DNA of 64,000 nucleotides, from the NCBI GenBank assembly GCA_965206645.1, contig CBDBKE010000003.1, positions 288,001 through 352,000 of the forward strand, given 5' to 3'. The position numbers and the translations under genes were made by a program. The DNA is from Terriglobia bacterium (GTDB taxonomy: Bacteria; Acidobacteriota; Terriglobia; JAJPHL01; JAPKYU01). Under the pieces are notes generated by a model. That model was not told the origin of the DNA. It saw only the letters and a list, made by a program, of their open reading frames with translations, and ran no database searches. Below, piece after piece: positions 1,623-26,423 of this stretch (the stretch's first letter is position 1; every line of letters starts with the position of its first letter).

Positions 1623-2607
1623 GGCGTTGTTGCGTAATTCGCGCTCGCGGCGAACCGGGCCGAGAAGCTCATCCGCCTCAGTACACGCGCTCCGATCGTG
1701 GCATTCCAAGCTCCGCCATCCGGTTCAGCACAGCGCACTTGATCGCGGCTTCGACTGCTTGGTTCTTGACCGTGCGGGCCGAGAGGCTTACCCCGAGTAT
1801 CGCCTTGTACCGTGAGACCGCATTCTCCGCCACGCTCTGGCGAGTGCAGCCACTCGACTTCCGCCACTCATAACGGCCCTGCGTCCTAATACGCCGGAGA
1901 TGGGTATCACGCATCGCACGCCACGGAGGCGGATGAGAGTCTCGGCTGCATCGTGCATTGCGTCGCGGCAAGATCGTCACGATAGCGTCGTGCTGGAGCA
2001 CGGCCTCGTAGCAGGAACCCGTGTCGTAGGCCCGGTCTGCGGAGACTTGCCCGATCGAACCAGGAGTCTTAGACAGCAACGAAGAGAGCCTTCGGGCGTC
2101 GTGGACGTTGCTCGCAGTCAGGTCCATCGCAACGATCTCTTTCGTCGTCTCATCGACGCCTAGGTGGAGCTTTCGCCATGTCCTACGGCGGAGGGTTCGG
2201 TGTTTTCTGATGTGCCACTCACCGGCTCCGTAGATCTTCAGGCCCGTCGAATCGATGACGACATGTCGTGGTCGATCCGTGGGCCCTACACTCAGTCGGA
2301 CGTCGACGGCGCTTTGCCTTCGGCTCACCGTGCTGTAGTTGGGCACTGGGAGGTCGAGAGCCATGAGCGCCACGATGGATTGAAGGAACCCTTGAGTGGT
2401 CCGTAGGTTGAGGTGAAACACCGAATTCAGGACCAGCGCACATTGGATCGCCGCATCTGCGTAGACCTTGGGCCGGCCTCGCCCTTCGAAGGGTCCTGGA
2501 TGACGCCAGGCAGCGACTGCCTCCGTGTCGAACCACAGTGTCAGCTGCCCACGTTTCACCAGAGCCCGGTTGTACTCCTGACCTGCCGGCTTTCTTCGGA
2601 CCACCGA

Positions 2608-3531
2608 TTACTGGAGAACAGCGCCAGTCGGCATGGTTAAGTCGCTCTCGTGTTCTTCTTGGTCAGCGTGAGCCGGCATCGCCGGCGAGCGCCCACCGTC
2701 ATCCGAGCCAGCACGGAGCTGCGCTTTGAACTCGGCTGGCGTCAGATAGCCAAGGCTTGAGTGCGGTCGCACGTCGTTGTAGTGCCGTCGCCATTGCTCG
2801 ATCCCCACCTTCGCGTCCACGCGGTTCCGAAACCACTGCAGGCTCAGATACTCGTCGCGGAACTTCCCGTTGAACGATTCGTCGGTCGCATTCTGCCACG
2901 GCTTGCCCGGCTCGATGAGCGCGGTTTCGATCTGCGCCTGGAGCAGCCACCGGAGAATCGCACCCGCAACAAACTCGGGGCCGTTGTCGGACCGGAGGTA
3001 ACGTGGGGCTCCGTGGACGCTCACGAGCTGCGTGAGCACCTCGATAACGCGCCCGGACCGAATGCCGCCGGCCACGTCGATCGCGAGTGACTCGCGGGTC
3101 CATTCGTCGACGACGGTGAGGCACTTGAGCGTCTGCCCATTCGCGCAGGTGTCGAACACGAAGTCGTACGCCCAGACGTGATTGACCGCAGTGGCGGGCA
3201 CCGGGCGGGGCCGGCTCAGGGCGACCCGGCGCCGCGGCCGCCGCCGAGGCACCTGCAACCCCGCCTGGCGCCAGAGGCGATGGGTCCGGTCCGTGCTCAT
3301 CGTGTGCCCTTCGCGTTTTAGGAAAATCCGAATCCGGCGATAGCCGTACCGCGGATACTGCGCCGCCAGACGACGCATCGCGGCCAGCGCCGGGGCATCC
3401 CGGTCGACCAGCCGCGACTGGTAGCCCAGCGTGGACCGTGCGACGGAGAGCAAGGCGCACGCGCGGCGACCCGACAGACCGCGTGCACGTGCATACGCGA
3501 CCTGCGGCCGGCGCACGCGTGCGCCTACCAT
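2608..3531 (-). CDS. IS3 transposase OrfB
   Basis: YPRYGYRRI, WAYDFVFD and LRSDNGPEF motifs. Confidence 0.9.
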   Translation of the reverse strand: MVGARVRRPQVAYARARGLSGRRACALLSVARSTLGYQSRLVDRDAPALAAMRRLAAQYPRYGYRRIRIFLKREGHTMSTDRTHRLWRQAGLQVPRRRPRRRVALSRPRPVPATAVNHVWAYDFVFDTCANGQTLKCLTVVDEWTRESLAIDVAGGIRSGRVIEVLTQLVSVHGAPRYLRSDNGPEFVAGAILRWLLQAQIETALIEPGKPWQNATDESFNGKFRDEYLSLQWFRNRVDAKVGIEQWRRHYNDVRPHSSLGYLTPAEFKAQLRAGSDDGGRSPAMPAHADQEEHESDLTMPTGAVLQ

Positions 3532-3788
3532 TTTTTTCGGGTGATCTCCTTGAGCACGTCGATCTCCAGATCTCGATCGGCCACCATCTTTTTCAGCCGG
3601 CCGTTCTCCTGCTCGAGCTGCCGCAGCCGCTTCACATCGGCGGGCTCCAACGTGCCGAAGTGTTTCCGCCAGGCGTAGAGCGTCTGGGCGCTGACGCCGT
3701 TCTTTTTGGCCACCTCCGGAACGGGCCGCTGATCGGCCTCGCGGAGGATCGTCACCATCTGCTCTTCGGTAAACCGGGTCTTCTTCAT
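3525..3788 (-). CDS. IS3 transposase OrfA (HTH)
   Basis: MKKTRFTEEQ...RLRQLEQENGRLKK. Confidence 0.9.
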   Translation of the reverse strand: MKKTRFTEEQMVTILREADQRPVPEVAKKNGVSAQTLYAWRKHFGTLEPADVKRLRQLEQENGRLKKMVADRDLEIDVLKEITRKKW

Positions 3789-4041
3789 GGCTCCCTCGTT
3801 TCTCCGAGGGCGCCATTCTCTCAGGCTTCAGCTGGTCCGGAAATCGCCAGGCAGGTCACTCCGGCCAGTTGCGAACCTTATATCGGAAGGTGTAGTCGCT
3901 TTTGCCCATCCCCTAGCCTATCAGGGGGGAGAGCGTTGGGGATGGAGTCAGATTTCTGCAACAACGCCGGCCAGCAAAGCAAACAAAGCAATTTTCATAA
4001 TTGGAATCTCCTCAGAGAAACGCGCTGAGCCACGGCGAGAC

Positions 4042-6903
4042 CTACTTGCCCTTCAGTTGCTCCCAGGTCTTCGGTCGCCATTCCCGCGCCAATCGCTGGG
4101 CCTCGGCGACTTGTGAAGCAGTCATCTTCTCTGCCAGTTTGTCCCTCGCTACTCGGTAATCCTCTGCTTTCCTTGTAGTAGTCCGTGAGGCCGCCAAGTT
4201 AACCCACTTGTGGGCTTGGACGTAGTCCTGGGGTACGCCATCCCCGTTGGCGTACATGAAACCGAGGTTGTGTTGGGCACTAGCGTCGCCCTGCTCGGCG
4301 GCCTTGCGATACCAACCCACGGCCTCTTGGTAGTCTTGGGGCACGCCCTCGCCTTTGTCGTACATGACACCGAGGTTGTATTGGGCAGCAGCGTCGCCCT
4401 GCTCGGCAGCTTTGCGATACCAACTCCTGGCCTCGGCATCGTTCTCCGGTACGCCCTCGCCTTTGTCGTACATGACACCGAGGCTGAATTGGGCACCAGC
4501 GTCGCCCTGCTCGGCGGCCTTGCGATACCACTTCACAGCCTCAGCATCGTTTTCCGGCACGCCATCCCCGTTGGCGTACATGAAACCGAGGTTGAATTGG
4601 GCACCGGCGGTCCCCTGTTCGGCGGCGAGCCGAAACCACTTCACAGCCTCGGCATCGTTCTCCGCCACACCCGTACCATCGGCGTACATGACACCAAGGT
4701 TGAGCTGAGCGCGGGCTACTCCCTGCTCAGCGGCCATCCGGTACCACTTCACAGCCTCAGCATCGTTTTCCGGCACGCCATCCCCGTTGGCGTACATGAA
4801 ACCGAGGTTGAATTGGGCACCGGCGGTCCCCTGTTCGGCGGCGAGCCGAAACCACTTCACAGCCTCGGCATCGTTCTCCGCCACACCCTCACCGTCGGCG
4901 TATATGGCACCGAGGAAGTATTGGGCACCGGCGTGACCTTGTTCGGCGGCGAGCCGATACCACTTCACAGCCTCAGCATCGTTTTCCGGTACGCCCTCGC
5001 CGTTGTCGTACATGAGACCGAGGCTGAATTGGGCACCGGCGTCGCCCTGCTCGGCGGCCTTGCGAAACCACTTCACAGCCTCGGCATCGTTCTCCGCCAC
5101 ACCCTCACCGTCGGCGTATATGGCACCGAGGAAGTATTGGGCATTGGCGTGACCCTGCTCGGCGGCGAGCCGATACCACTTCACAACCTCAGCATCGTTT
5201 TCCGGCACGCCATCCCCGTTGGCGTACATGAAACCGAGGTTGAGCTGAGCGCGGGCTACTCCCTGCTCAGCGGCCATCCGGTACCACTTCACGGCCTCGG
5301 CATCGTTTTCCGGCACGCCCTCGCCGTTGGCGTACATGGCACCGAGGAAGTATTGGGCATTGGCGTGACCCTGCTCGGCGGCGAGCCGATACCACTTCAC
5401 AGCCTCAGCATCGTTTTCCGGCACGCCATCCCCGTTGGCGTACATGAAACCGAGGTTGAGCTGAGCGCGGGCTACTCCCTGCTCAGCGGCCATCCGGTAC
5501 CACTTCACGGCCTCGGCATCGTTTTCCGGCACGCCCTCGCCGTTGGCGTACATGGCACCGAGGAAGTATTGGGCATTGGCGTGACCCTGCTCGGCGGCGA
5601 GCCGAAACCACTTCACAGCCTCAGCATCGTTTTCCGGTACGCCCTCGCCTCTGGCGTACCGGAGGCCGAGTAAGAATTGGGCATTGGCGTGACCTTGTTC
5701 GGCGGCGAGCCGATACCACTTCACAGCCTCGGCATCGTTTTCCGGCACACCCTCGCCTCTGGCGTACCGGAGGCCGAGTAAGAATTGGGCACCGGCGTGA
5801 CCTTGTTCGGCGGCGAGCCGATACCACTTCACAGCCTCGGCATCGTTTTCCGGCACACCCTCGCCTCTGGTGTGCATGACACCGAGTCTGGCTTGGGCCG
5901 TAGCGTTCCCCTGCTCAGCGGCCATCCGGTACCACTTTGCGGCCTCGGCATTGTCCTGCGGCACACCCGCACCATCGGCGTACATGACACCAAGGTTGAG
6001 CTGAGCGCGGGCTACTCCCTGCTCAGCGGCCATCCGGTACCACTTCACGGCCTCGGCATCGTTTTCCGGCACGCCCTCGCCGTTGGCGTACATGGCACCG
6101 AGGAAGTATTGGGCATTGGCGTGACCCTGCTCGGCGGCGAGCCGATACCACTTCACAGCCTCAGCATCGTCTTCCGGCACGCCCTCGCCGTTGGCGTACA
6201 TGGCACCGAGGAAGTATTGGGCATTGGCGTGACCTTGTTCGGCGGCGAGCCGATACCACTTCACAGCCTCGGCATCGTTTTCCGGCACACCCTCGCCTCT
6301 GGCGTACCGGAGGCCGAGTAAGAATTGGGCACCGGCGTGACCTTGTTCGGCGGCGAGCCGATACCACTTCACAGCCTCGGCATCGTTTTCCGGCACGCCC
6401 TCGCCGTTGGCGTACATGGCACCGAGGAAGTATTGGGCATTGGCGTGACCTTGTTCGGCGGCGAGCCGATACCACTTCACAGCCTCGGCATCGTTTTCCG
6501 GCGCACCCTCGCCTCTGGTGTGCATGACACCGAGTCTGGCTTGGGCCGTAGCGTTCCCCTGCTCAGCGGCGAGCCGATACCACTTCACGGCCTCGGCATC
6601 GTTTTCCGGCACGCCCTCGCCGTTGGCGTACATGGCACCGAGGAAGTATTGGGCATTGGCGTGACCCTGCTCGGCGGCGAGCCGATACCACTTCACAGCC
6701 TCAGCATCGTTTTCCGGTGCGCCCTCGCCGTTGGCGTACCGGAGGCCGAGTAAGAATTGGGCATCGGCGTCACCCTGATCGGCGCGGCGGCGGATTTCCG
6801 TGAGCGGGTCCGGGTCCTGCCCGAGCGCCCAAGGCGCGATTAGCGTCAACGCCAGCACGGAAAGGGCAAGAACCGCCGTCTGTCTCCTTTTTGCCCGTTT
6901 CAT
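4042..6903 (-). CDS. Secreted Sel1-like repeat (SLR) protein, 24 repeats
   Basis: Signal peptide followed by 24 x 36-aa units (AQxxLGxxYxxGxGVPENDAEAVKWYRxAAEQG) and a typical SLR C-cap (MTASQVAEAQRLAREW). Confidence 0.95.
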   Translation of the reverse strand: MKRAKRRQTAVLALSVLALTLIAPWALGQDPDPLTEIRRRADQGDADAQFLLGLRYANGEGAPENDAEAVKWYRLAAEQGHANAQYFLGAMYANGEGVPENDAEAVKWYRLAAEQGNATAQARLGVMHTRGEGAPENDAEAVKWYRLAAEQGHANAQYFLGAMYANGEGVPENDAEAVKWYRLAAEQGHAGAQFLLGLRYARGEGVPENDAEAVKWYRLAAEQGHANAQYFLGAMYANGEGVPEDDAEAVKWYRLAAEQGHANAQYFLGAMYANGEGVPENDAEAVKWYRMAAEQGVARAQLNLGVMYADGAGVPQDNAEAAKWYRMAAEQGNATAQARLGVMHTRGEGVPENDAEAVKWYRLAAEQGHAGAQFLLGLRYARGEGVPENDAEAVKWYRLAAEQGHANAQFLLGLRYARGEGVPENDAEAVKWFRLAAEQGHANAQYFLGAMYANGEGVPENDAEAVKWYRMAAEQGVARAQLNLGFMYANGDGVPENDAEAVKWYRLAAEQGHANAQYFLGAMYANGEGVPENDAEAVKWYRMAAEQGVARAQLNLGFMYANGDGVPENDAEVVKWYRLAAEQGHANAQYFLGAIYADGEGVAENDAEAVKWFRKAAEQGDAGAQFSLGLMYDNGEGVPENDAEAVKWYRLAAEQGHAGAQYFLGAIYADGEGVAENDAEAVKWFRLAAEQGTAGAQFNLGFMYANGDGVPENDAEAVKWYRMAAEQGVARAQLNLGVMYADGTGVAENDAEAVKWFRLAAEQGTAGAQFNLGFMYANGDGVPENDAEAVKWYRKAAEQGDAGAQFSLGVMYDKGEGVPENDAEARSWYRKAAEQGDAAAQYNLGVMYDKGEGVPQDYQEAVGWYRKAAEQGDASAQHNLGFMYANGDGVPQDYVQAHKWVNLAASRTTTRKAEDYRVARDKLAEKMTASQVAEAQRLAREWRPKTWEQLKGK
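4180..6771 (-). repeat. 108-bp coding tandem array, 24 units
   Basis: Exact 108-bp periodicity; many units near-identical at DNA level. Confidence 0.95.
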
Positions 6904-7079
6904 CGTTCTTCCAAATCAGTCGGCCCATTCTCCCACGCTCCCAAGGCAATAACCACACAGAAACAAGCCGGCCACAAAAGGGGGCTAAACGTCCTTGAGA
7001 GAGAACTAGCGGTTGGGGCCATAGTCTCGATCCGGCCCGAACCGCTGCTGCTGTATTTGCCGCGGATATGGTTCAGCCC

Positions 7080-7713
7080 GGTACTGTCAAGTTAGCGTTC
7101 GTCGAGCGAGCCGGTACTCGGGATCGTGATCTCAGTTCGAGTCAGGCGGCGATCGTGACTGCATCCCAAATGAGAAAAGAGCGTCCTCGTAGCTCCCGAT
7201 GATGCACCGCTCGCACCAGGTGACGGCCAACGCGGAAGAGGTTGCGGACGAGTCCATGCACGGACAAGAATCGTTGTGCCTGCCCGGGAGATTTGAACCG
7301 GCGCATTTGTCGCTCGCGTTGCCGTGTGGGCTGGTGGGAGACTTCGGCGCGATTGTTCTCGTATCGGTCCGTGCGATGGGCGACGGACGGCATGACCGCT
7401 CGGTGCGCAGCCCTGTAGCTGCTCAGCTTGTCGGTGACCAACCGCCCAGGCGTACGCTCCTGGCCCTTCAACAGCTTGCGGAAAAAGCGTGTAGCCGCCC
7501 GACAGTCGCGATGCGACTGGACGAGGATATCGATGACGTCACCATCTTGATCGACGGCACGCCAGAGATAGCGCCGCTGTCCCTGGATGGTGACGAAGAC
7601 CTCGTCCAGGTGCCAGATGTCGCCCAGCCGGCCCTGTCGACGCTTGAGCCGGCGAGCGTATACTGAACCGAACGTGAGGCACCACAGCCGGATCGCTTCG
7701 TAGGACACCGCAA
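7080..7713 (-). mobile_element. IS6-family element, 5'-truncated (transposase remnant 7142-7708)
   Basis: WHLDEVFV, YLWRAVDQDG, VTDKLSSY and NNRAEVSHQPTR motifs; terminal IR GGTACTGTCAAGTT at 7080; the N-terminal codons are missing. Confidence 0.9.
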
Positions 7714-7832
7714 GGTATTGTCAAGTTGAGGCTGACGGCTGTTTTTGATGCTCAGCATGGCGGGTTCGAGACGGGCTGGAGCGCAATATCTTGGGGGTCG
7801 ATCGACGAGCTTTTCGTCAACTTGACAATGCC
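7714..7832. mobile_element. 119-bp MITE-like element with IS6-type TIRs
   Basis: GGTATTGTCAAGTT (7714-7727) and AACTTGACAATGCC (7819-7832) are inverted and match the IS6 end at 7080. Confidence 0.7.
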
Positions 7833-10334
7833 GCTCAGTTAGCTCGGTATGTTCGGCGCGACGACCTGGACCGCTTTCGACAGGTTGTGCTTGATGTCCT
7901 CAGCGTACCCGATCCGCAATTTGACCTGCCGCTTGAGGAGCGCTGGAGTGCTGGTGTCCATGGCCAAGTGCCCGCACACTCATCCGGCTTGTGTGAAGGA
8001 CTGGCGGCGACGTTGGCAATCATGGGAGCGCGCGAAGAGGTTCCCACGGTTGCAGGAGGAGTGACCTTGCGCCAGCAAGCCGAGTCGATCGTAAATGAGC
8101 TACTTGGCCGCGCAAATCAGGACATGAGACTCTGGCTTTCCCTTAGCCATGTGCTTCCCTTGCTGGCCGAGGCAGCCCCGGACGTGTTCCTGGAAGCGGT
8201 AGAAGACGGACTCAACGGTGACAACCCTGTGGTTATGGAGCTTTTTGTCGAAGCCCCAGGTCCATTGTTTGGGTCGGCCCACCATACGGGACTCTTGTGG
8301 GCACTCGAGTCGCTCGCTTGGAGTCCGGATCATCTTGCTCGTGCGGCGCTCGTCCTTGCGACCCTGGCACGCCGGGATCCTGGGGGTCAGTGGGCGAACC
8401 GGCCTGCGGAGAGTCTGCGGGGGGTCTTCTTGCCATGGTCGCCTCAGACGACGGCGAGGGTGGAAAAGCGGATGAGTATCATTGATCGACTACGGGAGCG
8501 CACACCCGACGTTAGTTGGAAGTTGATGAAAGAACTCTTACCTGAGACACATGGCACCGGCCATTTCTCAGCGAAACCACAGTGGCGAGATTGGGCTCCC
8601 GACGAGGGTCCGCAAGTCACACGCGGGGAGTTGTTTGAAGTAACGAAGGAAGTCCTGCAGCGATTGCTTGAGGACGTTGGGGCGCTGAGGTCGCGCTGGG
8701 AGGATTTGATCCGTGCTCTCGCGGATCTGCCACTCGAGTTGTATCAAATGATCGTTGAACGCCTCGGTAGTCTCGACGCGGATGCTCTAGAGGAGGAAAG
8801 TCGCGTTCGGATTTGGTCTGCGCTTCGCACGCTTCTCTCGCATCATCGGTCCTTTTCCGATGCACAGTGGGCGCTTCCTGCGGATCGCCTTGACCAGCTT
8901 GATGATTTGTTGGAGCGTTTTGCTCCGGAGGATTTCTCCGATCGTTTTGGTTGGCTGTTCGCCGACCACATAGAGCTTCCTGAAGGCATGGAGCAGGACT
9001 GGGATGCGAAAGAACACGCTGTGGAAGCTGCACGGCTCGACGCTGTCAGAAAGATCCATGGGGAGCGCGGTCTGAAAGGGCTTCTCGCGTTGGTGCCTTC
9101 ACTTGAGCGCGCGTGCTGGTTGGGAGCCACGCTGGTCAAGGGCGATCTTGTCGGTGAGCATGAGGAGAACGCGATCTTATCGGAATACTTGGCCCATGAG
9201 GACAGCAAGAAATCGGATTTCGTGCAAGGTTTAGTGTTCGAACGAACCCGTACGCGTGGCATCGAGTGGGTGCGAGCGAAGGTCCTTGGTCCCGGCCAGG
9301 GTTGGGCTGCCAAACAGCGTGGAGTGTTTTTGAGGCATGTGCAGCCTCAACCAGCAGCCTGGGATCTCGTATCCCAGCTCGGTGCAGAAACTGAGAAAGA
9401 GTACTGGCGGGCGATGGTTCCATGGAGATTCGAAAAGAAACATTACAACGATTACCTCGTGCGGAAACTGTTGGAGCATAATTGGCCATTTACCGCCACT
9501 CAGGTGCTCCATGCGGGTCTTCGAAATGAGGCCGATGTTTCCCAGTCTCTTATCGCGGATGTCCTTGAGGCAGCCATCCGTGCAGACCCCCAAAGGGATC
9601 ACTACGGGCATTCGTTCTCCTTTTGCGCCGCGCAGTTGCTCGACCGGCTGGTTTCAGGGGAAGTGGCCGAAGAACGCATCGCCCGCATCGAATGGGCCTA
9701 CCAGCCGTTACTGCGGTCTGATCGCGAACCGAAGTTTCTTCAAGGGGAACTCGGTCGCAGTCCGTCGTTTTTCGCCGAGATTGTGTCGCTTATCTATTGT
9801 GCTGAAGGTGAAGAGCCCGGCGCTGTATCAGAAGAACGGAGGAATATGGCGCGTCTTGGCCACGACCTCCTGGACTCTTGGCATACGCCTCCGGGCTCGA
9901 CAGAAGATGGCTACGTTAATGCGCAGGAACTGCGCGAATGGATCGACCACGCTCGTCGTCTTGTTGCGGAGGGTGGACGTGGAGCGATCGGCGATGAAGT
10001 GATCGGGAGAGTGTTAAGTGGTTCGCCAAGAGGACAGGACGGCACGTGGCCCGTGGAAGCGATTCGTAACGTCATTGAAGATGTTGCAAATAGGGATTTG
10101 GAACGTGGCTTTGAGGTCGGAACCTTTAATGGCCGAGGTGTGGTAAGAAAGAATCCGGCTGAGGGCGGAGAACAGGAGCGTCAATTGACAAAGCGATACG
10201 AGAAGCATGCGGAAGCGGTGGGCGACCGGTGGCCGCGGACTGCCGCCATGCTGCGAAGGATAGCGGAGACGTATCGGACGGAGGCCCGCAGAGAGGACGA
10301 TCAGTCGGAACTGATGGGAAATCTTGATCAGTAG
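7833..10334 (+). pseudogene. 5'-truncated large alpha-helical protein (~830 aa remain), possibly defence-associated
   Basis: Long open frame whose start lies inside the MITE. It carries LPLLAEAAPDVFL, GLLWALESLAW and the C-terminal GGEQERQL...RWPRTAAMLRRIAE, which I recall from ~1250-aa HTH/ATPase proteins (not verified). Confidence 0.6.
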
Positions 10335-11825: not shown

Positions 11826-12104
11826 ATGCCGACAAGGAGTTACAAGCCGGAGCAGATTGTAGCGGTGCTACGGCAGATAGAAGTGCAGATGGGGAACGGG
11901 AAGACTGCGCCCCAAGCCTGCAAAGAAGCTGGAATCCACACCCAAACCTACTACCGGTGGCGGAAGGAATACGGCGGGCTGAAGGTGGTGCAGGCAAAAC
12001 GGCTGAAGGAGTTGGAGAAGGAAAACACGCGGCTGAAGCGGTTGGTAGCGGAGCTTTCTCTGGAGAAGCAGGTGCTGCGGGATGTGGCACAGGGAAACTT
12101 CTGA
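11826..12104 (+). CDS. IS3 transposase OrfA
   Basis: YKPEQIV...TYYRWRKEYGG...RLKELEKEN. Confidence 0.9.
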   Translation: MPTRSYKPEQIVAVLRQIEVQMGNGKTAPQACKEAGIHTQTYYRWRKEYGGLKVVQAKRLKELEKENTRLKRLVAELSLEKQVLRDVAQGNF

Positions 12105-12970
12105 GCCCTGAGCGGCGGCGTTGTGCGGTGGAGCGTGCGTGGGAGCAACACGGGTTGTCGGAACGGCATGCCTGCCGGCTGCTGGGGCAATGGCGAGGGA
12201 CACAACGATACGAGCCGATTCATCGGGTGGACGAGGATGCTCTGACCCGAGCGATCATTGCCCTGGGAGCGAAGTACGGGCGATATGGCTACCGGAGGAT
12301 CACAGCGTTGCTGCGGAGTGCGGGCTGGGAAGTGGGCAAGGACCGGGTGCAGCGGATTTGGCGGCGGGAAGGGCTGAAAGTGCCGCAAAAACAAAGGCCG
12401 CGAGGACGGCTGTGGCTGAACGACGGTTCCTGTGTACGACTGAGGCCGGAGCGACCGAACCACGTGTGGAGCTACGACTTCATGAGTGCCAGAACGCACG
12501 AGGGGAGAACGCTGCGGCTGCTGACCTTGCTGGATGAGTACACGCGGGAATGCCTGGCGATCCGGGTGGAGCGGAGGATGGGCAGCCAACAAATCATTGA
12601 GGCGTTGTCGGACGTGATGTTGTGGCGAGGGATACCGGAACAGATTCGATCCGACAATGGTCCCGAGTTCATCGCCAAACAACTGCGCCAGTGGTTGGCA
12701 AATCTAGGGACCGGGACACTGTACATCGAACCGGGCAGTCCCTGGGAGAACGGGTACTGCGAGAGTTTCAATGGGAAGCTGCGGGACGAATGCCTGAATG
12801 GAGAGATCTTCTACTCGTTGAAGGAGGCACAGGTGGTGATTGAACAGTGGAGGGTGCAATACAACACGGTGCGGCCGCACTCGGCGCTCGGCTATAGGCC
12901 CCCGGCGCCGGGGGCCTATAGCCATCCCCTGCCACTGAAACCAGTTTCACAGCCCCAGGCTGCGATGTGA
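12101..12970 (+). CDS. IS3 transposase OrfB (probably expressed by -1 frameshift)
   Basis: YGRYGYRRI, WSYDFM and IRSDNGPEF; start approximate. Confidence 0.88.
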   Translation: MSPERRRCAVERAWEQHGLSERHACRLLGQWRGTQRYEPIHRVDEDALTRAIIALGAKYGRYGYRRITALLRSAGWEVGKDRVQRIWRREGLKVPQKQRPRGRLWLNDGSCVRLRPERPNHVWSYDFMSARTHEGRTLRLLTLLDEYTRECLAIRVERRMGSQQIIEALSDVMLWRGIPEQIRSDNGPEFIAKQLRQWLANLGTGTLYIEPGSPWENGYCESFNGKLRDECLNGEIFYSLKEAQVVIEQWRVQYNTVRPHSALGYRPPAPGAYSHPLPLKPVSQPQAAM

Positions 12971-14819: not shown

Positions 14820-16508
14820 TCAGGGGTCCACTTTAAGCTTGACTGGGCCGCGGTCTCGCTCCTTAGAGGCGTGATCCTGCCAAGCAGACGCCCGGTCCTT
14901 CTCGCCTAAGGCACCTTCCGGCTGCTGCCACGGCCCCCGCGGCACTTTCAACTCCGGCATGGGGGCCGCCTGAAACAATCGTCGGCAGGGTTTCGCCAGC
15001 CACCGCGCCCACTTAGCGGCGCGATTCACCTGGGCGCTGTCGGCGGCGATGCCGGTGTTGGCGTACATCTGTCGGTAGAGTTTTGAAATCAACACAAAAG
15101 TAAGCCGGGCCCGTAGGGACCTTATGAAGAGGGATCGCTTCCAAATCGATCGCAAGCGATAAAAACGGTCCCAAACATCCTGGGTGCGCCGACGGATCTC
15201 GTCGGCGGACATGACCGGATGGGACATGTACATCTTCGGTCGAAGAGCCTGGGGAATCAGCCAGTAGCGCGTCAGCGGGATGCCGGCAATCCGGGTGGTA
15301 TTGCTCTCCATCTTCTTTTCCCAGCGCTGGAAATCCACCGTTCCGGGGAAAGGCGTCAACAACACGAACTGCGCAAACGTCACCTCGGCCTCCTGTGCCA
15401 GAGCGGCGGTAGCCTCAAAGGTATCCGGCCGGTCGGTGGGGAGCCCAAAGATGAATGAGCCCAGGACGTGTACACCGTGTTCCCGAAAAGTGCCGAGCTG
15501 ACGAACCAGGCTGTCGCCCGCGGAGTTGAACTCCTTGTGGACAGCCTTCAGTCCTTCCGGGGTGACCGATTCAACTCCCACCAGCGCTCCCTTGATCTTG
15601 GCTCTGCGCATTGCCTCTAGGAATTCGGGATCGTCTGCCGCCTCCATGGTGATTTGCGTGAAGAACACCATGTCCTTGGGCAGCTCCGCCAGGCGCGCCA
15701 TCAATTCGAACCGTTCTTCGCGCAGGGCCAGCAGCTCGCTCAGCCGTTGTTGGTTGTTCTGACGCTCGGCCAGTCTCAGGTCCTCAAGTGTAACCGGATA
15801 AAAGTTGTCGTCGGCGAGCGCAATGAACCGAAACCCCCGGCGGCGTAGTTCGACAATTTCCTGAATGACCACGTCCGAAACACGCTGGCGTGGGCGCTGG
15901 CCGTCCGTACGCCAGACCGAACAAAACGAGCAGTGCTTCGGGCATCCGCGTACGGTTTGGACCGAGGCCCACATGTATCTATCGGGCGGCAGCAACTCCC
16001 AACGCGCTGGCAGGAACTGGTCGGCCTCGATGCGCCCGCCCTCGTAGAGGTGCTGGGGCCCTCCGTTCGTGCAATCGGCCAACACCCTCGCCCAAACCAC
16101 GTCTCCATCGCCTTTCACCACCGCGTGTGCACCTCCTAACTCGTACGCTTCCTCCGGGTAGAGGCTGGTGTGAATGCCACCGAAGATCACGTAAGCTCCG
16201 CGTTCACGAGCCATCTGCCCTACTTCGTAGCCGCGCAGAGCATTGCCGCTATGGATCCCGATTCCAACCACGTCGCCCGGTTTGATCTCCGTGAAGTAGG
16301 TTGGCTCGAGCGATTCGTCGACAAGTAGGGGGTCTCCGAAGGCGTGTGGGGTAGCAGCAGCAATTACGTAGAGCCATCGTGGCGTAATAACGCCTATACC
16401 AAACGATAAGTGATTTGGATTGACCAAGTGCACACGCACGGAGCTATTCTTCTCCCCTGAAATCCGATTCTGAACAGGAATTTCCGATTCCAACTTTACC
16501 TTTAACAT
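14820..16508 (-). CDS. B12-binding domain radical SAM protein
   Basis: QTVRGCPKHCSFC (CxxxCxxC), N-terminal B12 domain with IFGGIH, and DDNF; start could be 16508 or GTG 16439. Confidence 0.88.
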   Translation of the reverse strand: MLKVKLESEIPVQNRISGEKNSSVRVHLVNPNHLSFGIGVITPRWLYVIAAATPHAFGDPLLVDESLEPTYFTEIKPGDVVGIGIHSGNALRGYEVGQMARERGAYVIFGGIHTSLYPEEAYELGGAHAVVKGDGDVVWARVLADCTNGGPQHLYEGGRIEADQFLPARWELLPPDRYMWASVQTVRGCPKHCSFCSVWRTDGQRPRQRVSDVVIQEIVELRRRGFRFIALADDNFYPVTLEDLRLAERQNNQQRLSELLALREERFELMARLAELPKDMVFFTQITMEAADDPEFLEAMRRAKIKGALVGVESVTPEGLKAVHKEFNSAGDSLVRQLGTFREHGVHVLGSFIFGLPTDRPDTFEATAALAQEAEVTFAQFVLLTPFPGTVDFQRWEKKMESNTTRIAGIPLTRYWLIPQALRPKMYMSHPVMSADEIRRRTQDVWDRFYRLRSIWKRSLFIRSLRARLTFVLISKLYRQMYANTGIAADSAQVNRAAKWARWLAKPCRRLFQAAPMPELKVPRGPWQQPEGALGEKDRASAWQDHASKERDRGPVKLKVDP

Positions 16509-16865
16509 ACAATCATACGCCAGTCGCCCTCTTGTGCCAAGCTCACATCGCCATGGCCGCGATGGGGGGGAATCCCGGCTCGTTTTGGCAGTTCGGATGC
16601 TGCGATCATCCCGGCGGTCGACCGTTGTCCACACAAACGTCCACACGGAAAAGTCGGAAGCCCCTCCTTAAGCTTGCCCCTCGGCTCCTCGTTGAAAAAA
16701 CTTCTTCTCGAACTCCTCGCTGGGTGTTATCTTCCTCTGCATTCGGGTGTCCCTCCTTCTCGATAAGTGTTTTTGCAGGACAACTTCATTGAAAAGGGGT
16801 TATACACCGGGCTCCTTTTACAGGAAGATTAAGACATCAGCGTTGATCCAACAGGAGGAGGAACT

Positions 16866-18994
16866 ATGAAATTGATGAAAACCTCCCGAATGATGGATTG
16901 GGGTATAAGAATCCTCCTGCTCCTGTTGCTTCTCTTCAGTACCCTTCTCGCCCATAAATCCCCCTTTCTGGAAGGGACAAGCGAATCCCGGCAGCTCGCC
17001 CTGCATTTTCAGGAAGTCGCTCTCGATTCCATGAAGGACAGTACCTCCGACCGGGCCCGAGCGATTGAACTCTATTGGCAAGCCCATCGGATGGCAGGTC
17101 GCGACGTAGCGCCAGACCAGATGCAACGGCTGCTCACGAAACTCTACTCGCAGTTGCCAGGCAGCCGCATTGCCCGCGTAACTCTGAGCCGCTCCGGTTG
17201 GCAGACCCAGGGCCCTGCCGAACCGGTTATTCTTACCCAGGGTAAGCTCTCCCATCATCTGCTGCTGATTCTCGCCAACCAGACCCGAGAGCCGCACCGC
17301 TTCTCGGTGTCAGGAGCCGACGCGGCGGTGGACGTGCTGGGAGAATCTCGATCGCTGGTGGCCGGAGGCTCGACGGGTCTTTTTGTGCGCCTGGCGAGCC
17401 AACGCCTGGGCCGTTTCCGCTCCTCGCTGCGCCTCGAATCCGCCGGCCAAACCGTGGCAGTGCCTATTCATTACGAAGTGCGCCGGTCGGGACGCCTAGT
17501 AGCTCGTCTGTGGGATGCTGAGGGACGCCCCACGGCGGCGCGTATCTTTCTCCGGGCGGCCGGCGGATTCACCCACATTCCGGAGGGGAGCATCGACCGG
17601 GTGATGTGGATTTCGGGGGAACACTTCTTCTACGCGGACGCCGTGGTGCAGGCCGACTTGCCCCAGGGGAAAGCCAGCCTGGAGGTGGTCAAGGGCTTCG
17701 ATTACCTCCCCGTCACCGTCGAAGTGAACATCAAGGCCCAGGAGACCGCCTGGATAGATGTGCGTCTCAAACGGCTAGAAGGGATGAATGCCCAAGGCTG
17801 GTACAGCGGCGATGTGCATATCCACGGTAACTATCGGGGCGATCAGTTCATCACGCCGGAAGATAATTTCCTGATGGTTCGAGCCGAAGACCTGAATGTG
17901 GGCAACATGATGGTGGCCAACTCCGACGGAGCCCAGATTCACGACGAGCAGCATTTTGCGGGCAAGCTGCATGCGCTGTCCAGCCCAGAGCACCTGATGT
18001 ACTGGAACGAAGAGATGCGCAACCGCAGTATGTACGGGCATTTGATTTTGCTGAAGCTGAAGGAACTGGTGCGGCCCATCTATACGGGTTTTCCGGGAAC
18101 CCCGAATTGGGAGGATTACCCTGCCAACTATTATCATGCCCGGAAGGCCCAAGAGCAGGAAGGACACGTAGCCTACTCCCACCCAGCGTTAGTCTTTGAT
18201 GAAATTCCGACTGCATACCGGGCGCAAGAAGCGGTGGTGGATGTTCCTTTGGGACTGGTGGACGCCTTTGAAGTATTTAACAGCCGCGACGAACCCTCCA
18301 TGGCCCTCTGGTACAAATTCCTCAACACAGGTTTCAAGCTGGGCATCGCCGGTGGAAGCGATGCTATGATCAACCACAAATATATCTTTGTGGCCGGCGG
18401 AGTGCGGGCCTATGTCTACACCGGCCCCGAGTTCACCTATGAAAAATGGGTGGACGGCTTCGAGCCTTCGCCACGGTGGGCCCGTTGCTGTCCTTCGAGA
18501 TCGAAGGCCACCTCCCTGGTCAGGAGTTCCGTGTTCCCCAAGGATCGGTCCAGCTTACGGCCAGTGCCCGCGCTGTCTCCTGGATTCCTATGACGAAACT
18601 GGAGATTGTGTCCAACGGGAAAGTCATTGATGCCGTCTCTAGTGAGGTTCCCACAAAGCGGCTGGAGTGGACGGGCGTCATATCAGTGGAGCGCAGTTCC
18701 TGGGTGGCGGCGCGGGTGTGGGGCCCCGAACACCGGCGAATTGCCAACTCACCTTTTGTTTTTGCAGAACGGCGCTCGCCACTGCTGCTTCTAGCCCACA
18801 CCGGCGCCTCCTACGTGCATATCGGGGACTCGCCCATCTTTTCCCCGAAAGATCACGCCTTCCTGCTGCGGTGGATCGACAGTCTGATCGAGCAAGTTAA
18901 AACGCGCGGGCAGTTTGCCACCCAGGACCGCCGACAAGAAGTCATCAAGACCTTCCTGCGGGCCCGAAGGATCTACGAAGTAATGAGAGAATAA
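16866..18994 (+). pseudogene. CehA/McbA-family PHP metallohydrolase, frameshifted near 18460
   Basis: GWYSGDVHIH, YGHL, YSHP and GGSDA motifs; the C-terminus (RAFATVGPLL...WVAAR...AHT) continues in another frame. Confidence 0.8.
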
Positions 18995-23498: not shown

Positions 23499-26423
23499 AT
23501 GATCCTCAAGCAGTATTATCTCGGCTGTCTCGCCCATGCTTCTTATTTACTAGGTGATGAGGGGAGCCGGACGGCGGTCATCGTTGATCCTCAGCGTGAT
23601 ATTGACCAATATCTGGCAGAGGCCGCGGAGCAACAGCTGAAGATCAGTCACGTTATCCTTACCCATCTGCACGCCAACTTCCTCGCGGGGCATGTGGAGC
23701 TGAGGGAACGTGCCGGGGCCAAAATCTGCCTGGGCTCCCAAGCGAAGGCCGAATACGAGTTCATCGGTTTCAAAGATGGCGACAGTTTGGAATTTGGAAC
23801 GCTAAGACTGAGTATCCTCGAGACACCCGGTCACTCACCGGAATCTATGTCGATAGTTGTTTACGATCTAATCTCAGACTCTCAGAAACCGTGCGCGGTC
23901 CTCACCGGTGACACACTCTTTATCGGCGATGTGGGTCGCCCGGATTTGAGGATGTCCCTTGGGTTTTCGGCACAACAGCTCGCTGGATTGCTCTACGATT
24001 CGCTGCACCAGAAACTGATGAAACTGCCGGATGAAACACTGGTTTATCCGGCGCACGGGGCCGGATCTTTATGTGGAAGGCAATTGAGCACCGAAACCGT
24101 ATCCACGATTGGCGCCCAGCGCCAGTACAACTACGCGCTACAACCCATGAGTAAGAAGGAGTTCGTACAACTGGTCACCGCTGAACAGCCTGACGCTCCG
24201 TCCTACTTCACTTATGACGTGATCCTCAACGCGAAAGAGCGGCCAACTCTGGAGGAGAGTCTAGAGCAGCATTTGAGACCGATCAAGTTGCCCCAATTCC
24301 TCGAAATGGCCAACTCCGGAGCACAAGTTGTAGATGTGCGCGATCCGACTGAATTCTCAGGCGGTCACCTTGCCGGCAGCATAAACATCGGCCTGGCCGG
24401 GCAGTTTGCGAGCTGGGCCGGCACGTTGCTCGACATGCAGAAGGCAATCATGATCATTACTTCGCCCGGATCCGAAAAGGAGGCAGCGATGCGCCTCGGT
24501 CGCATCGGCTTCGACCACTTGGCTGGCTATCTGAAGGGCGGCATGGAGGCCGTTCGCTCGTATCCCGAACTCGTTCAAAGTGTCACCCGGTTGACGGCAA
24601 CGACACTCGCCGAACAACTGGCCTGCGAGACTCCGCCTCTGGTTGTGGACGTTCGCAACGACAAGGAGAGACAGGAAAAGCGGATCGAAGGGAGCTTTCA
24701 CATTCCTTTGACCCGTCTGCGAGAACGAATCGGGGAGCTGCCCCGTGACAAGAATCTGGTTGTCCACTGTGCAGGAGGCTACCGTTCCTCCATGGCTGCG
24801 AGCTTGCTTCGACAGTTTGGGATCAAGGATGTGTGCGACCTGCTTGGCGGGATTACTGCATGGGAGAAATCAGGGTTCGAGATCCTAGAAGGTGGGACAG
24901 CCCAAGCGAGCAAGCTTATGAGACCTACCGAATATTCCGAAAGGACTCTTGAATTGGCAGGCTGGCCTGACCTGCCTGGCGATTTCCGGACCAGCTGAAG
25001 CCTGAGAGAATGGCGCCCTCGGAGAAACGAGGGAGCCATGAAGAAGACCCGGTTTACCGAAGAGCAGATGGTGACGATCCTCCGCGAGGCCGATCAGCGG
25101 CCCGTTCCGGAGGTGGCCAAAAAGAACGGCGTCAGCGCCCAGACGCTCTACGCCTGGCGGAAACACTTCGGCACGTTGGAGCCCGCCGATGTGAAGCGGC
25201 TGCGGCAGCTCGAGCAGGAGAACGGCCGGCTGAAAAAGATGGTGGCCGATCGAGATCTGGAGATCGACGTGCTCAAGGAGATCACCCGAAAAAAATGGTA
25301 GGCGCACGCGTGCGCCGGCCGCAGGTCGCGTATGCACGTGCACGCGGTCTGTCGGGTCGCCGCGCGTGCGCCTTGCTCTCCGTCGCACGGTCCACGCTGG
25401 GCTACCAGTCGCGGCTGGTCGACCGGGATGCCCCGGCGCTGGCCGCGATGCGTCGTCTGGCGGCGCAGTATCCGCGGTACGGCTATCGCCGGATTCGGAT
25501 TTTCCTAAAACGCGAAGGGCACACGATGAGCACGGACCGGACCCATCGCCTCTGGCGCCAGGCGGGGTTGCAGGTGCCTCGGCGGCGGCCGCGGCGCCGG
25601 GTCGCCCTGAGCCGGCCCCGCCCGGTGCCCGCCACTGCGGTCAATCACGTCTGGGCGTACGACTTCGTGTTCGACACCTGCGCGAATGGGCAGACGCTCA
25701 AGTGCCTCACCGTCGTCGACGAATGGACCCGCGAGTCACTCGCGATCGACGTGGCCGGCGGCATTCGGTCCGGGCGCGTTATCGAGGTGCTCACGCAGCT
25801 CGTGAGCGTCCACGGAGCCCCACGTTACCTCCGGTCCGACAACGGCCCCGAGTTTGTCGCGGGTGCGATTCTCCGGTGGCTGCTCCAGGCGCAGATCGAA
25901 ACCGCGCTCATCGAGCCGGGCAAGCCGTGGCAGAATGCGACCGACGAATCGTTCAACGGGAAGTTCCGCGACGAGTATCTGAGCCTGCAGTGGTTTCGGA
26001 ACCGCGTGGACGCGAAGGTGGGGATCGAGCAATGGCGACGGCACTACAACGACGTGCGACCGCACTCGAGCCTTGGCTATCTGACGCCAGCCGAGTTCAA
26101 AGCGCAGCTCCGTGCTGGCTCGGATGACGGTGGGCGCTCGCCGGCGATGCCGGCTCACGCTGACCAAGAAGAACACGAGAGCGACTTAACCATGCCGACT
26201 GGCGCTGTTCTCCAGTAATCGGTGGTCCGAAGAAAGCCGGCAGGTCAGGCCAGCAAGGCTTACCTCTTACAAGCTAGGAGACAGGTGCTATTGCAAGGCC
26301 GACAATGTGGACCCAGGAGCATGTTTAACGCGGACCGATGGTTCCACCAAAGAAGAGGCCGAGAAACGAGCTATTGAAAGGGCTGAGAAGTATCTTTCCC
26401 GAACCAAGAGGTTGTCGGCCTAG
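23499..26423 (+). CDS. MBL-fold plus two rhodanese domains (persulfide dioxygenase/sulfurtransferase-like); C-terminal domain split by IS3 at 24968
   Basis: THLHAN, TPGHSPE, LTGDTLFIGDVGRPDL, YPAHGAGSLCG and HCAGGYRS. The frame currently stops at 24998 inside the IS; removing the IS restores it to TAG 26421-26423. Confidence 0.85.
24968..26247 (+). mobile_element. IS3-family element type B, copy 2 (1280 bp; orfA 25038-25301, orfB 25295-26218)
   Basis: Near-identical to 2579-3858 in the opposite orientation; 4-bp target duplication GGCC. Confidence 0.95.

Follow-up and report, generated by a model that had tools for sequence, protein, structure and literature searches.

The stretch of 64,000 nucleotides (nt) analysed here, hereafter the window, comes from a Terriglobia bacterium (assembly GCA_965206645.1, contig CBDBKE010000003.1, positions 288,001 to 352,000), whose genome is a 4.4 Mb assembly of four contigs without N, placed by recA in the Acidobacteriota (best named matches 80-84%). 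An intact gene for a Sel1-repeat protein of 953 amino acids is located on its minus strand (4042-6903) as a single frame of 953 codons, and these 2859 nt are open without any indel across 24 repeat units. The protein begins with a signal-peptide-like N-terminus (residues 1-29, MKRAKRRQ...APWALG before Q; 6817-6903, minus strand), with a net charge of +5 in residues 1-9, a hydrophobic core and agreement with the -3/-1 rule at A-L-G before Q. The label "secreted" given in the initial annotation fits these features, which were recognised by heuristics only. A short helix between the leader and the first Sel1 unit is followed by the array of 24 units of 108 bp (residues 45-908; 4180-6771, minus strand), the last of them a degenerate capping unit, and by a C-terminal tail (residues 909-953 plus the stop codon; 4042-4179, minus strand), a capping module widespread in Sel1 proteins. 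Relatives of this tail were encoded by 176 of the 205 candidate stretches obtained in a search of genome contigs (best 74%), and a protein search with the tail only yielded 102 proteins (best 69%). The whole protein is devoid of cysteine.

The regularity of the array, described initially as 24 exact 108-bp units, was borne out. The motif AAEQG occurs 23 times in the protein with all 22 spacings exactly 36 amino acids, and the Tandem Repeats Finder software reported a repeat at 4235-6784 with period 108, 23.6 copies, 81% matches and 0% indels, although a period of 216 gave a higher score (84% matches). The Pfam Sel1 model (PF08238) matched in 24 stretches (E 4.1e-268; 856.9 bits against a cut-off of 30.7), and no other domain was found above the Pfam cut-off in the 953 residues. 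Composition is native-like, with a GC content at third codon positions (GC3) of 0.72. The solved structures related by sequence are 6ok3 (E 8e-101), 4bwr (EsiB, E 3e-94), 8sxq (LceB) and 1ouv (HcpC). The product is thus predicted to be an exported-type Sel1-like-repeat alpha/alpha solenoid with a Sec-type leader and no lipobox. Antisense and off-frame open reading frames (ORFs) of up to 487 codons also run through the array, for example at 4210-5673 on the plus strand; such frames are an expected by-product of a stop-free repeat unit and do not constitute gene evidence.

Comparison of the units confirmed that helix B is almost invariant and that helix A occurs as a few re-used types, with all the type counts originally given. 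The types are YF-AM (units 2, 4, 6, 7, 12 and 14), FL-LR (units 1, 5, 10 and 11), AR-VM (units 3 and 9), LN-VM (units 8 and 20), LN-FM (units 13 and 15), YF-AI (units 16 and 18), FN-FM (units 19 and 21) and FS (units 17 and 22), together with the single types YN (unit 23) and HN (unit 24). Several units are identical in DNA (7, 12 and 14; 5 and 10), and units 3 and 9, like units 13 and 15, differ by 1 nt of 108. A twin within 1 nt was found for 9 of the 24 units, within 5 nt for 14 and within 8 nt for 18.

The presence of chimaeric units was established by a mosaicism test on the 18 distinct sequences of units 1-21, which contain 35 informative biallelic sites. All four gametes were found in 216 of the 595 pairs of informative sites, the minimum number of recombination events (Rm) was 10, and the clustering of compatible sites was reached by none of 5000 permutations of site order (0/5000). 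The units are therefore recombinant mosaics; units 8 and 20, for instance, share a helix-A half but not the helix-B half attached to it. The coupling noted between the end of one unit and the start of the next (RM to VAR, RK to DA) was also recovered, methionine at position 31 being followed by VA in 4/5 cases and lysine by DA in 4/4. Exchange points do fall inside conserved sequence, as had been observed; homologous recombination requires this, so it adds no further finding.

Unit order provides information on how the array has grown. The near-identical, non-adjacent twins exist as described, but their scatter is not random: pairs within 5 nt were found in 0/20 cases at lag 1, 5/19 at lag 2 and 3/16 at lag 5. 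The mean distance at lag 2 was below that of shuffled unit orders (P 0.007, one of 12 lags, uncorrected), and the lack of adjacent twins was unremarkable against shuffled orders (P 0.13 for the adjacent mean, 0.23 for the minimum). Exact repeats of 90 nt or more detected by an in-register scan, nine in number and 108-203 nt long, crossed a unit border in 9/9 cases. The longest, of 203 nt, in unit coordinates equates 11.86-13.73 with 13.86-15.73, and another, five units apart, equates 4.51-6.16 with 9.51-11.16. Units 12-15 (5152-5583, minus strand) represent a recent tandem duplication of a two-unit block of 216 bp, with the 203-nt exact repeat, identical units 12 and 14, and 1 nt between units 13 and 15. 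Twins at lags 2 and 5 together with border-crossing repeats indicate multi-unit duplication by unequal in-register homologous exchange, plus conversion tracts, and the coupling across unit borders follows because copied tracts ignore the chosen unit register. The small "alphabet" and the non-adjacent scatter are the product of two-unit and five-unit block duplications plus half-unit conversion tracts. DNA-identical in-frame copies, border-crossing exact tracts, mosaic units and a unit number and order that differ between species are all found here, as in a coding tandem repeat under concerted evolution. Repeats usually expand by several domains at once and in the middle of the array, according to a survey of domain repeats (PMC1553488).

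Sel1 matches to the protein query were present in 28 of 40 related genomes, and one congener, designated G003, has a clear ortholog, of 654 amino acids and 16 units (one cut to 22 residues, one of 38 residues) with the same leader and tail. Between the two genomes, identity is 92% for recA DNA and 92-96% for the syntenic DNA that flanks the gene. The number and the order of units differ (24 against 16), yet blocks are recognisable. The second half of unit 8 to unit 10 of the window gene (5692-5961, minus strand) is collinear with ortholog units 11b-12-13 (11 differences in 270 nt), and unit 18 to the first half of unit 19 (4774-4935, minus strand) matches ortholog units 10-11a (5 differences in 162 nt). 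Near the 3' end, 23b, 24b and the tail match 14b, 16b and the tail of the ortholog with 2/54, 1/54 and 6/138 differences. As single units, window unit 9 and ortholog unit 12, and window unit 18 and ortholog unit 10, are each 1 nt of 108 apart. Ortholog units 10-13 are thus found again in the window array with hardly any change, amplified and re-assorted by half-units. In the half-unit comparison, no counterpart of the diverse ortholog units 2-8 was found in the window gene, and no source in the ortholog was found for the YF-AM and VAR-LN helix-A halves (best 7 and 12-16 differences in 54 nt). Surplus copies, no more than 5 nt from a twin, number nine, close to the eight-unit difference between the two genes. 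The half-unit matches imply that a handful of unit halves predate the species split and were amplified and re-assorted in the window lineage; this is a comparison of two genomes without a root, compatible with gain in the window gene, loss in the ortholog or a combination of the two. Recent transfer between the two species, considered because units are 99% and recA 92% identical, was discarded as unsupported given the collinear blocks and a syntenic flank of about 96%.

These data are best accommodated by a sequence of events in which unequal in-register exchange between repeats would duplicate two-unit or five-unit blocks, and unit halves would be re-assorted by gene conversion over tracts of about half a unit. 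A few ancestral halves, present also in the 16-unit ortholog of the sister species, would in this way have been amplified and re-assorted, while selection would hold helix B and the loops constant in the protein and leave about eight helix-A positions diverse, as in Sel1 proteins generally. The gene product is probably an exported Sel1 solenoid whose units have been re-assorted by ordinary recombination between repeats and which serves as a probable protein- or envelope-binding scaffold.

Recombinational array growth is not special to the window gene. In another Sel1 paralog, 5 units are encoded in this genome (C4:445140-446009) against 10 in G003 (462 amino acids; L024 1813-3201 on contig C2 of G003), where eight units lie within 0-8 nt of one another and one unit carries a one-codon insertion. 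The genus thus offers a second, independent case of array expansion. A whole-protein search found 7994 long Sel1 proteins (best 53-66% identity over part of the protein), and the best match among metagenome contigs was 70%. From the database matches, 16 other long Sel1 proteins were compared in a non-random selection, 12 chosen by family listing (with Sel1 or TPR-type repeat families as the sole entries, or lacking a pertinent second-domain family) and 4 as high scorers. A uniform helix B with a more varied helix A was found in 6/16 of them, and three pairs of near-identical units that are not adjacent were seen in the protein P0003. The same contrast between helices holds for two long arrays in related genomes (mean identity 0.60/0.80 and 0.57/0.73). 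No other protein examined is as extreme as the window protein, which has 16 near-identical unit pairs.

An order or number of units invented by the assembler was considered, and exact repeats of up to 203 nt speak for it. Parts of the stretch were located in 20 public runs of 9 studies, including one labelled as a sponge metagenome and four metatranscriptome libraries; run labels are mostly coded, and the association with sponges derives from that single label. The four runs compared consist of short Logan contigs. Of 30 bins, 28-30 were covered by the three DNA-type runs and 25 by the RNA library, and the array-internal pieces are 74-205 nt long with 99-100% identity, among them a 205-nt piece over unit 8 with 1 mismatch in a metatranscriptome library. 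Such pieces support the local sequence and are compatible with expression. Their length, and some in-register joints that differ from the window, favour an error in unit order or number. Against it, the genome was assembled into 4 contigs without N despite 35 copies of a 1.28-kb insertion sequence (IS) at 95% identity or more, from which the use of long reads is inferred. Frame and 108-nt phase are perfect, local sequences including type-specific junctions are present at 99-100% identity in runs of four studies, and collinear blocks are common to the ortholog in an independent genome. An assembly artefact is consequently the least credible of the explanations considered.

Joints absent from the window were observed in the public contigs. 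One leads from nt 18 of unit 1 to a VAR-LN-type unit (runs X1, X3 and X6; region 4699-6754) and another from 4938 to 4510 (X3, X6 and X8, three runs of different studies, depth 64-250). They may reflect the orders of other strains, paralogs or paths of the assembly graph. Run contigs diverging from the window sequence at 6938 correspond to a paralog on contig C4 of the same genome, described below.

The pattern of substitution differs between the two halves of the unit. Synonymous diversity among units 1-21 is substantial (pS 0.32), which means that the unit types are old and only the twins are young. The ratio of nonsynonymous to synonymous diversity (pN/pS) is 0.14 in the helix-B half (pS 0.35) and 0.78 in the helix-A half, and a ratio of 0.14 despite that synonymous diversity reveals purifying selection on the protein, not mere erasure by conversion. 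Eight positions per unit are variable (1, 3, 6, 7, 10, 11, 13 and 14; 0.7-2.0 bits each) and form linked types, and they match the variable positions of 22 units from five paralogs (Spearman 0.66, P 1e-5). Entropy in the array versus the paralog units is 0.84 versus 1.06 bits in helix A and 0.23 versus 0.85 in helix B, each paralog of the genome having its own uniform helix-B signature.

The spatial position of these residues can be approached by homology. In the available parts of the structural reports on EsiB and LceB, the concave surface is made by helix 1 and is the less conserved, helix 2 makes up the convex side, and the superhelix has seven to eight units per turn with a pitch of 60-65 Å (PMC3851747, PMC10868440). 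By analogy, the 24 units would give approximately three superhelical turns, with helix A on the inner, concave side and helix B outside. On a helical wheel, positions 3, 6, 7, 10, 11 and 14 lie within 75 degrees of one direction (moment 0.43, P 0.039), and position 1 falls in the inter-repeat loop in the EsiB register. The variable residues accordingly share one face of a helix whose counterpart in solved Sel1 proteins borders the concave groove. The protein most likely acts as a scaffold that would bind protein or envelope in the periplasm or outside the cell, by analogy with the eukaryote-like proteins of sponge symbionts.

The transcription activator-like (TAL) effectors are built of tandem repeats in which two adjacent residues differ and each repeat reads one DNA base, and they carry type III secretion, nuclear localisation and activation regions. 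A modular code of this kind, proposed in the initial annotation, would have each unit type read one ligand element, the order spell the specificity and the shuffling serve adaptive re-targeting. It agrees with the small set of helix-A types on an invariant framework, with a unit order and number that differ from the ortholog, and with variable residues on one helical face with a pN/pS of 2.07 at the eight most variable codons, chosen post hoc; three superhelical turns could in principle wrap a polymer, judging from the geometry in the accessible text of PMC3851747. The proposal is nevertheless unsupported, since the eight positions co-vary as linked haplotypes instead of one or two free specificity residues, and block duplications account for the order. 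The same pattern occurs in other, unrelated long Sel1 arrays, and the homogeneous 10-unit paralog has hardly any helix-A diversity. No nucleic-acid-binding or other partner domain was found in the protein (only Sel1 exceeds the Pfam cut-off), nor any hint of a linear ligand; the leader is of Sec type by heuristics, and no domain for type III secretion, nuclear localisation or activation exceeds the Pfam cut-off. The available sections of the literature on Sel1 structures and variable Sel1 genes describe no Sel1 protein with one unit per monomer. A code of this type is accordingly regarded as very improbable, and an encoding of specificity by repeat order is speculation. The broader idea of an exported binding scaffold diversified by cassette shuffling survives in its exported-type solenoid and its recombinational re-assortment, without the code.

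Programmed variation, in which silent donor cassettes of the pilin or VlsE type, or a diversity-generating retroelement, would rewrite helix A, might also be suspected from mosaic units with conversion tracts in an exported protein of a probably host-associated bacterium. Variation of the pilE/pilS or vlsE type draws on silent donor copies elsewhere in the genome, and a diversity-generating retroelement uses a template repeat and a reverse transcriptase and produces variation at template adenines. A search of the genome for donor cassettes gave best outside matches of 75-95%, all of them ordinary paralogs; no unit-like sequence outside the gene exceeded 95.3% identity, with the sole exception of unit 1, which is 98% identical to the C4 paralog's own unit 1. 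The 35 biallelic sites lie in shared haplotype blocks, which is not the pattern of random mutagenesis at template adenines. Transposases and unrelated genes make up the neighbourhood, with no reverse transcriptase among them, the rest of the genome not having been searched for one. Programmed rewriting of helix A is thus highly unlikely, and ordinary recombination between the repeats of the array is preferred.

The surroundings of the gene are dominated by IS elements. Downstream, 185 nt beyond the stop codon, there is an IS of 1281 nt (2578-3858, minus strand) with a transposase of the rve/IS3 type (ORF 2608-3816), one of 35 near-full-length copies, and at 3858-3968 a 111-nt end fragment of another multi-copy IS, part of a 1062-nt element. 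An IS6/IS240-type element of 634 nt (7073-7713, minus strand; DDE ORF 7142-7708), present in 11 near-full-length copies, lies upstream and stops 169 nt short of the start codon. With IS copies on both sides, the gene forms an island of 3.1 kb; a composite transposon was ruled out as the flanking IS belong to different families. The scan for promoters and terminators detected nothing upstream of the gene.

Both ends of the gene have copies elsewhere in the genome. The 5' end (6664-6941, minus strand), comprising 38 nt upstream, the signal peptide and unit 1, is common to the C4 paralog (G000:C4:45140-45417; 98.9% over 278 nt), so that the first 240 nt plus the 38 nt upstream are shared and the protein start is identical. 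This paralog extends over G000:C4:45140-46065 as a frame of 299 amino acids (296 codons from ATG). The common segment was either shared or converted, or the paralog was its source. The 3' end with 73 nt downstream (3969-4251, minus strand) is duplicated as a truncated relic (G000:C2:834968-835250; 99.6% over 283 nt). The complete relic (G000:C2:834896-835250) contains the last half-unit and the tail in a 93-codon frame, the shared part being the last 210 nt plus the 73 nt downstream, and an IS end whose terminal letters are those of the element upstream of the window gene directly abuts it. The relic neighbours a nuclease-like gene, and in G003 this very position is occupied by the intact ortholog (syntenic, 96.4% over 783 nt). 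The relic at the locus of the syntenic ortholog indicates that the gene or a copy of it moved and that the old copy was cut down; move and truncation were probably caused by IS activity.

A decaying gene, whose array drifts in length without function under weak selection in an IS-ridden genome, would be in keeping with the 35 and 11 copies of two IS types, the 3.1-kb island with only 169 nt of upstream DNA, the truncated relic at the ancestral locus and the absence of a promoter-like site in the upstream scan. A frame of 2859 nt kept open with zero indels in 24 units is not expected of such a gene, and neither are the helix-B pN/pS of 0.14 against a pS of 0.35, the native-like composition with its GC3 of 0.72 and the occurrence of array-internal sequence in RNA-library contigs. 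Functionless runaway expansion is therefore unlikely, although less so than a code or programmed variation, and a maintained solenoid remains the preferred reading.

Other features of the window were noted. The IS load is very high, with further elements at 11957-12970 and 25010-26218, and the same IS families are found at 98-99% identity in G003 although recA DNA is 92% identical. A frame of 847 codons (7791-10334, plus strand) has no Pfam or NCBIfam match and a GC3 of 0.585, against 0.69-0.81 in its neighbours, and may be foreign, fast-evolving or no gene. A radical SAM/B12-binding gene (14820-16646, minus strand) is divergent from a CehA/McbA-family metallohydrolase gene (16866-18593, plus strand), neither with a link to the Sel1 gene.

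Several observations weigh against a binding scaffold re-assorted by ordinary recombination. No close source of the YF-AM and VAR-LN types exists in G003 or in other parts of this genome, and the orthologous comparison is a single one: the congeners G001 (96% complete) and G002 (62% complete) gave no match to the query, and protein, tail-only and metagenome-contig searches found no closer strain. The geometry and the placement of the variable residues rest on homology and on a helical-wheel calculation. The public contigs are short, and unit order rests on the assembly; those from the RNA library may be DNA carry-over or a near-identical allele, and the ones over the gene start belong to the C4 paralog. 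The ratio at the eight variable codons, picked after the fact in an array where recombination forbids a proper site test, leaves room for diversifying selection rather than mere tolerance. A tentative extension, rather doubtful at present, is that the array works as a natural combinatorial library, with a fixed helix-B framework on which recombination re-assorts old helix-A faces and selection acts on unit composition, and perhaps order, without a one-unit-one-monomer code. If this were true, sister lineages of a host-associated acidobacterium would present different concave surfaces and lengths to the same host target, and the same engine would be at work in more than one Sel1 paralog of the genus.

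This locus is a clear case of repeat evolution, and not a new kind, as variation in Sel1 repeat number and motif rearrangement has already been published (PMC4792463). Its value lies in its unusual legibility, with the pre-expansion state in a sister species, DNA-identical copies and half-units that can be traced singly. A striking "alphabet" can arise from plain homologous recombination, which calls for caution against reading codes into arrays. Genomes of sponge-associated and other host-associated bacteria are recurrently marked by Sel1 and other eukaryote-like repeat proteins, whose partners are mostly unknown, and the natural pair of 24 and 16 units, with different helix-A sets on one framework, is useful for work on binding and host uptake.

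Among known systems, TAL effectors are alike in their tandem helical repeats of similar length, their superhelix and their arrays changing by inter-repeat recombination, and unlike in that the window protein has eight linked variable positions, a Sec-type leader and no other domain. The periplasmic Sel1 proteins MerG, ExoR, MotX and AlgK of NCBIfam resemble it in their repeats and C-terminal cap, and the best MerG stretch places residues 795-944 on positions 58-212 of 217. The high NCBIfam scores are sums over 9-22 repeat stretches on models of 211-448 positions, AlgK and MotX falling below their cut-offs. Equivalence to MerG or ExoR (NF033786, NF045484) was rejected, since the scores add up 15 stretches for MerG (model of 217 positions) and 22 for ExoR (267 positions), and the neighbours include no mer, exoS/chvI, flagellar or alginate genes.

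The solved proteins EsiB (c5321 of E. coli CFT073, 4BWR), 6OK3, LceB (8SXQ) and HcpC (1OUV) belong to the same repeat family by sequence and have in common with the window protein 36-residue helix-turn-helix units, an N-terminal export signal and a C-terminal capping helix. They differ in having 8-11 units against 24, and the window array in its higher inter-unit identity and DNA-identical copies. EsiB is described as binding secretory IgA in the available part of PMC3735183. In sponge-associated genomes, Sel1 domains are reported to be strongly enriched, many with export signals and variable gene contexts (PMC12625764, part of the text), and an exported Sel1 protein was expressed in a metatranscriptome (available parts of PMC12625764 and PMC13747020, cited jointly). 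Single ANK, TPR and NHL proteins altered uptake by sponge cells, with no Sel1 protein among those tested in the part of PMC13747020 available. The window protein likewise combines a repeat domain of eukaryotic type with an export signal, the latter by heuristics.

The nearest precedents for the mode of evolution are two. In the accessible part of the Haemophilus influenzae study, the SlrV/msf proteins are Sel1 proteins with signal peptides whose repeat number differs between strains, the motifs of one protein scatter over the motif tree, modular rearrangement, expansion and contraction of Sel1-like repeats are proposed as a route of rapid evolution, and TAL effectors are named as fellow solenoids (PMC4792463). 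The SlrV/msf proteins, as described there, have 2-5 repeats and vary mainly in gene-copy number, whereas the window gene has 24 units with half-unit re-assortment traceable to an ortholog. The survey of Bjorklund, Ekman and Elofsson (2006; PMC1553488), in its available part, reports the same multi-unit, mid-array duplication and the same autocorrelation at lags above 1; its cases are mostly eukaryotic and its duplications older, and the window array differs from them by its DNA-identical copies and by a pre-expansion state preserved in a sister species.

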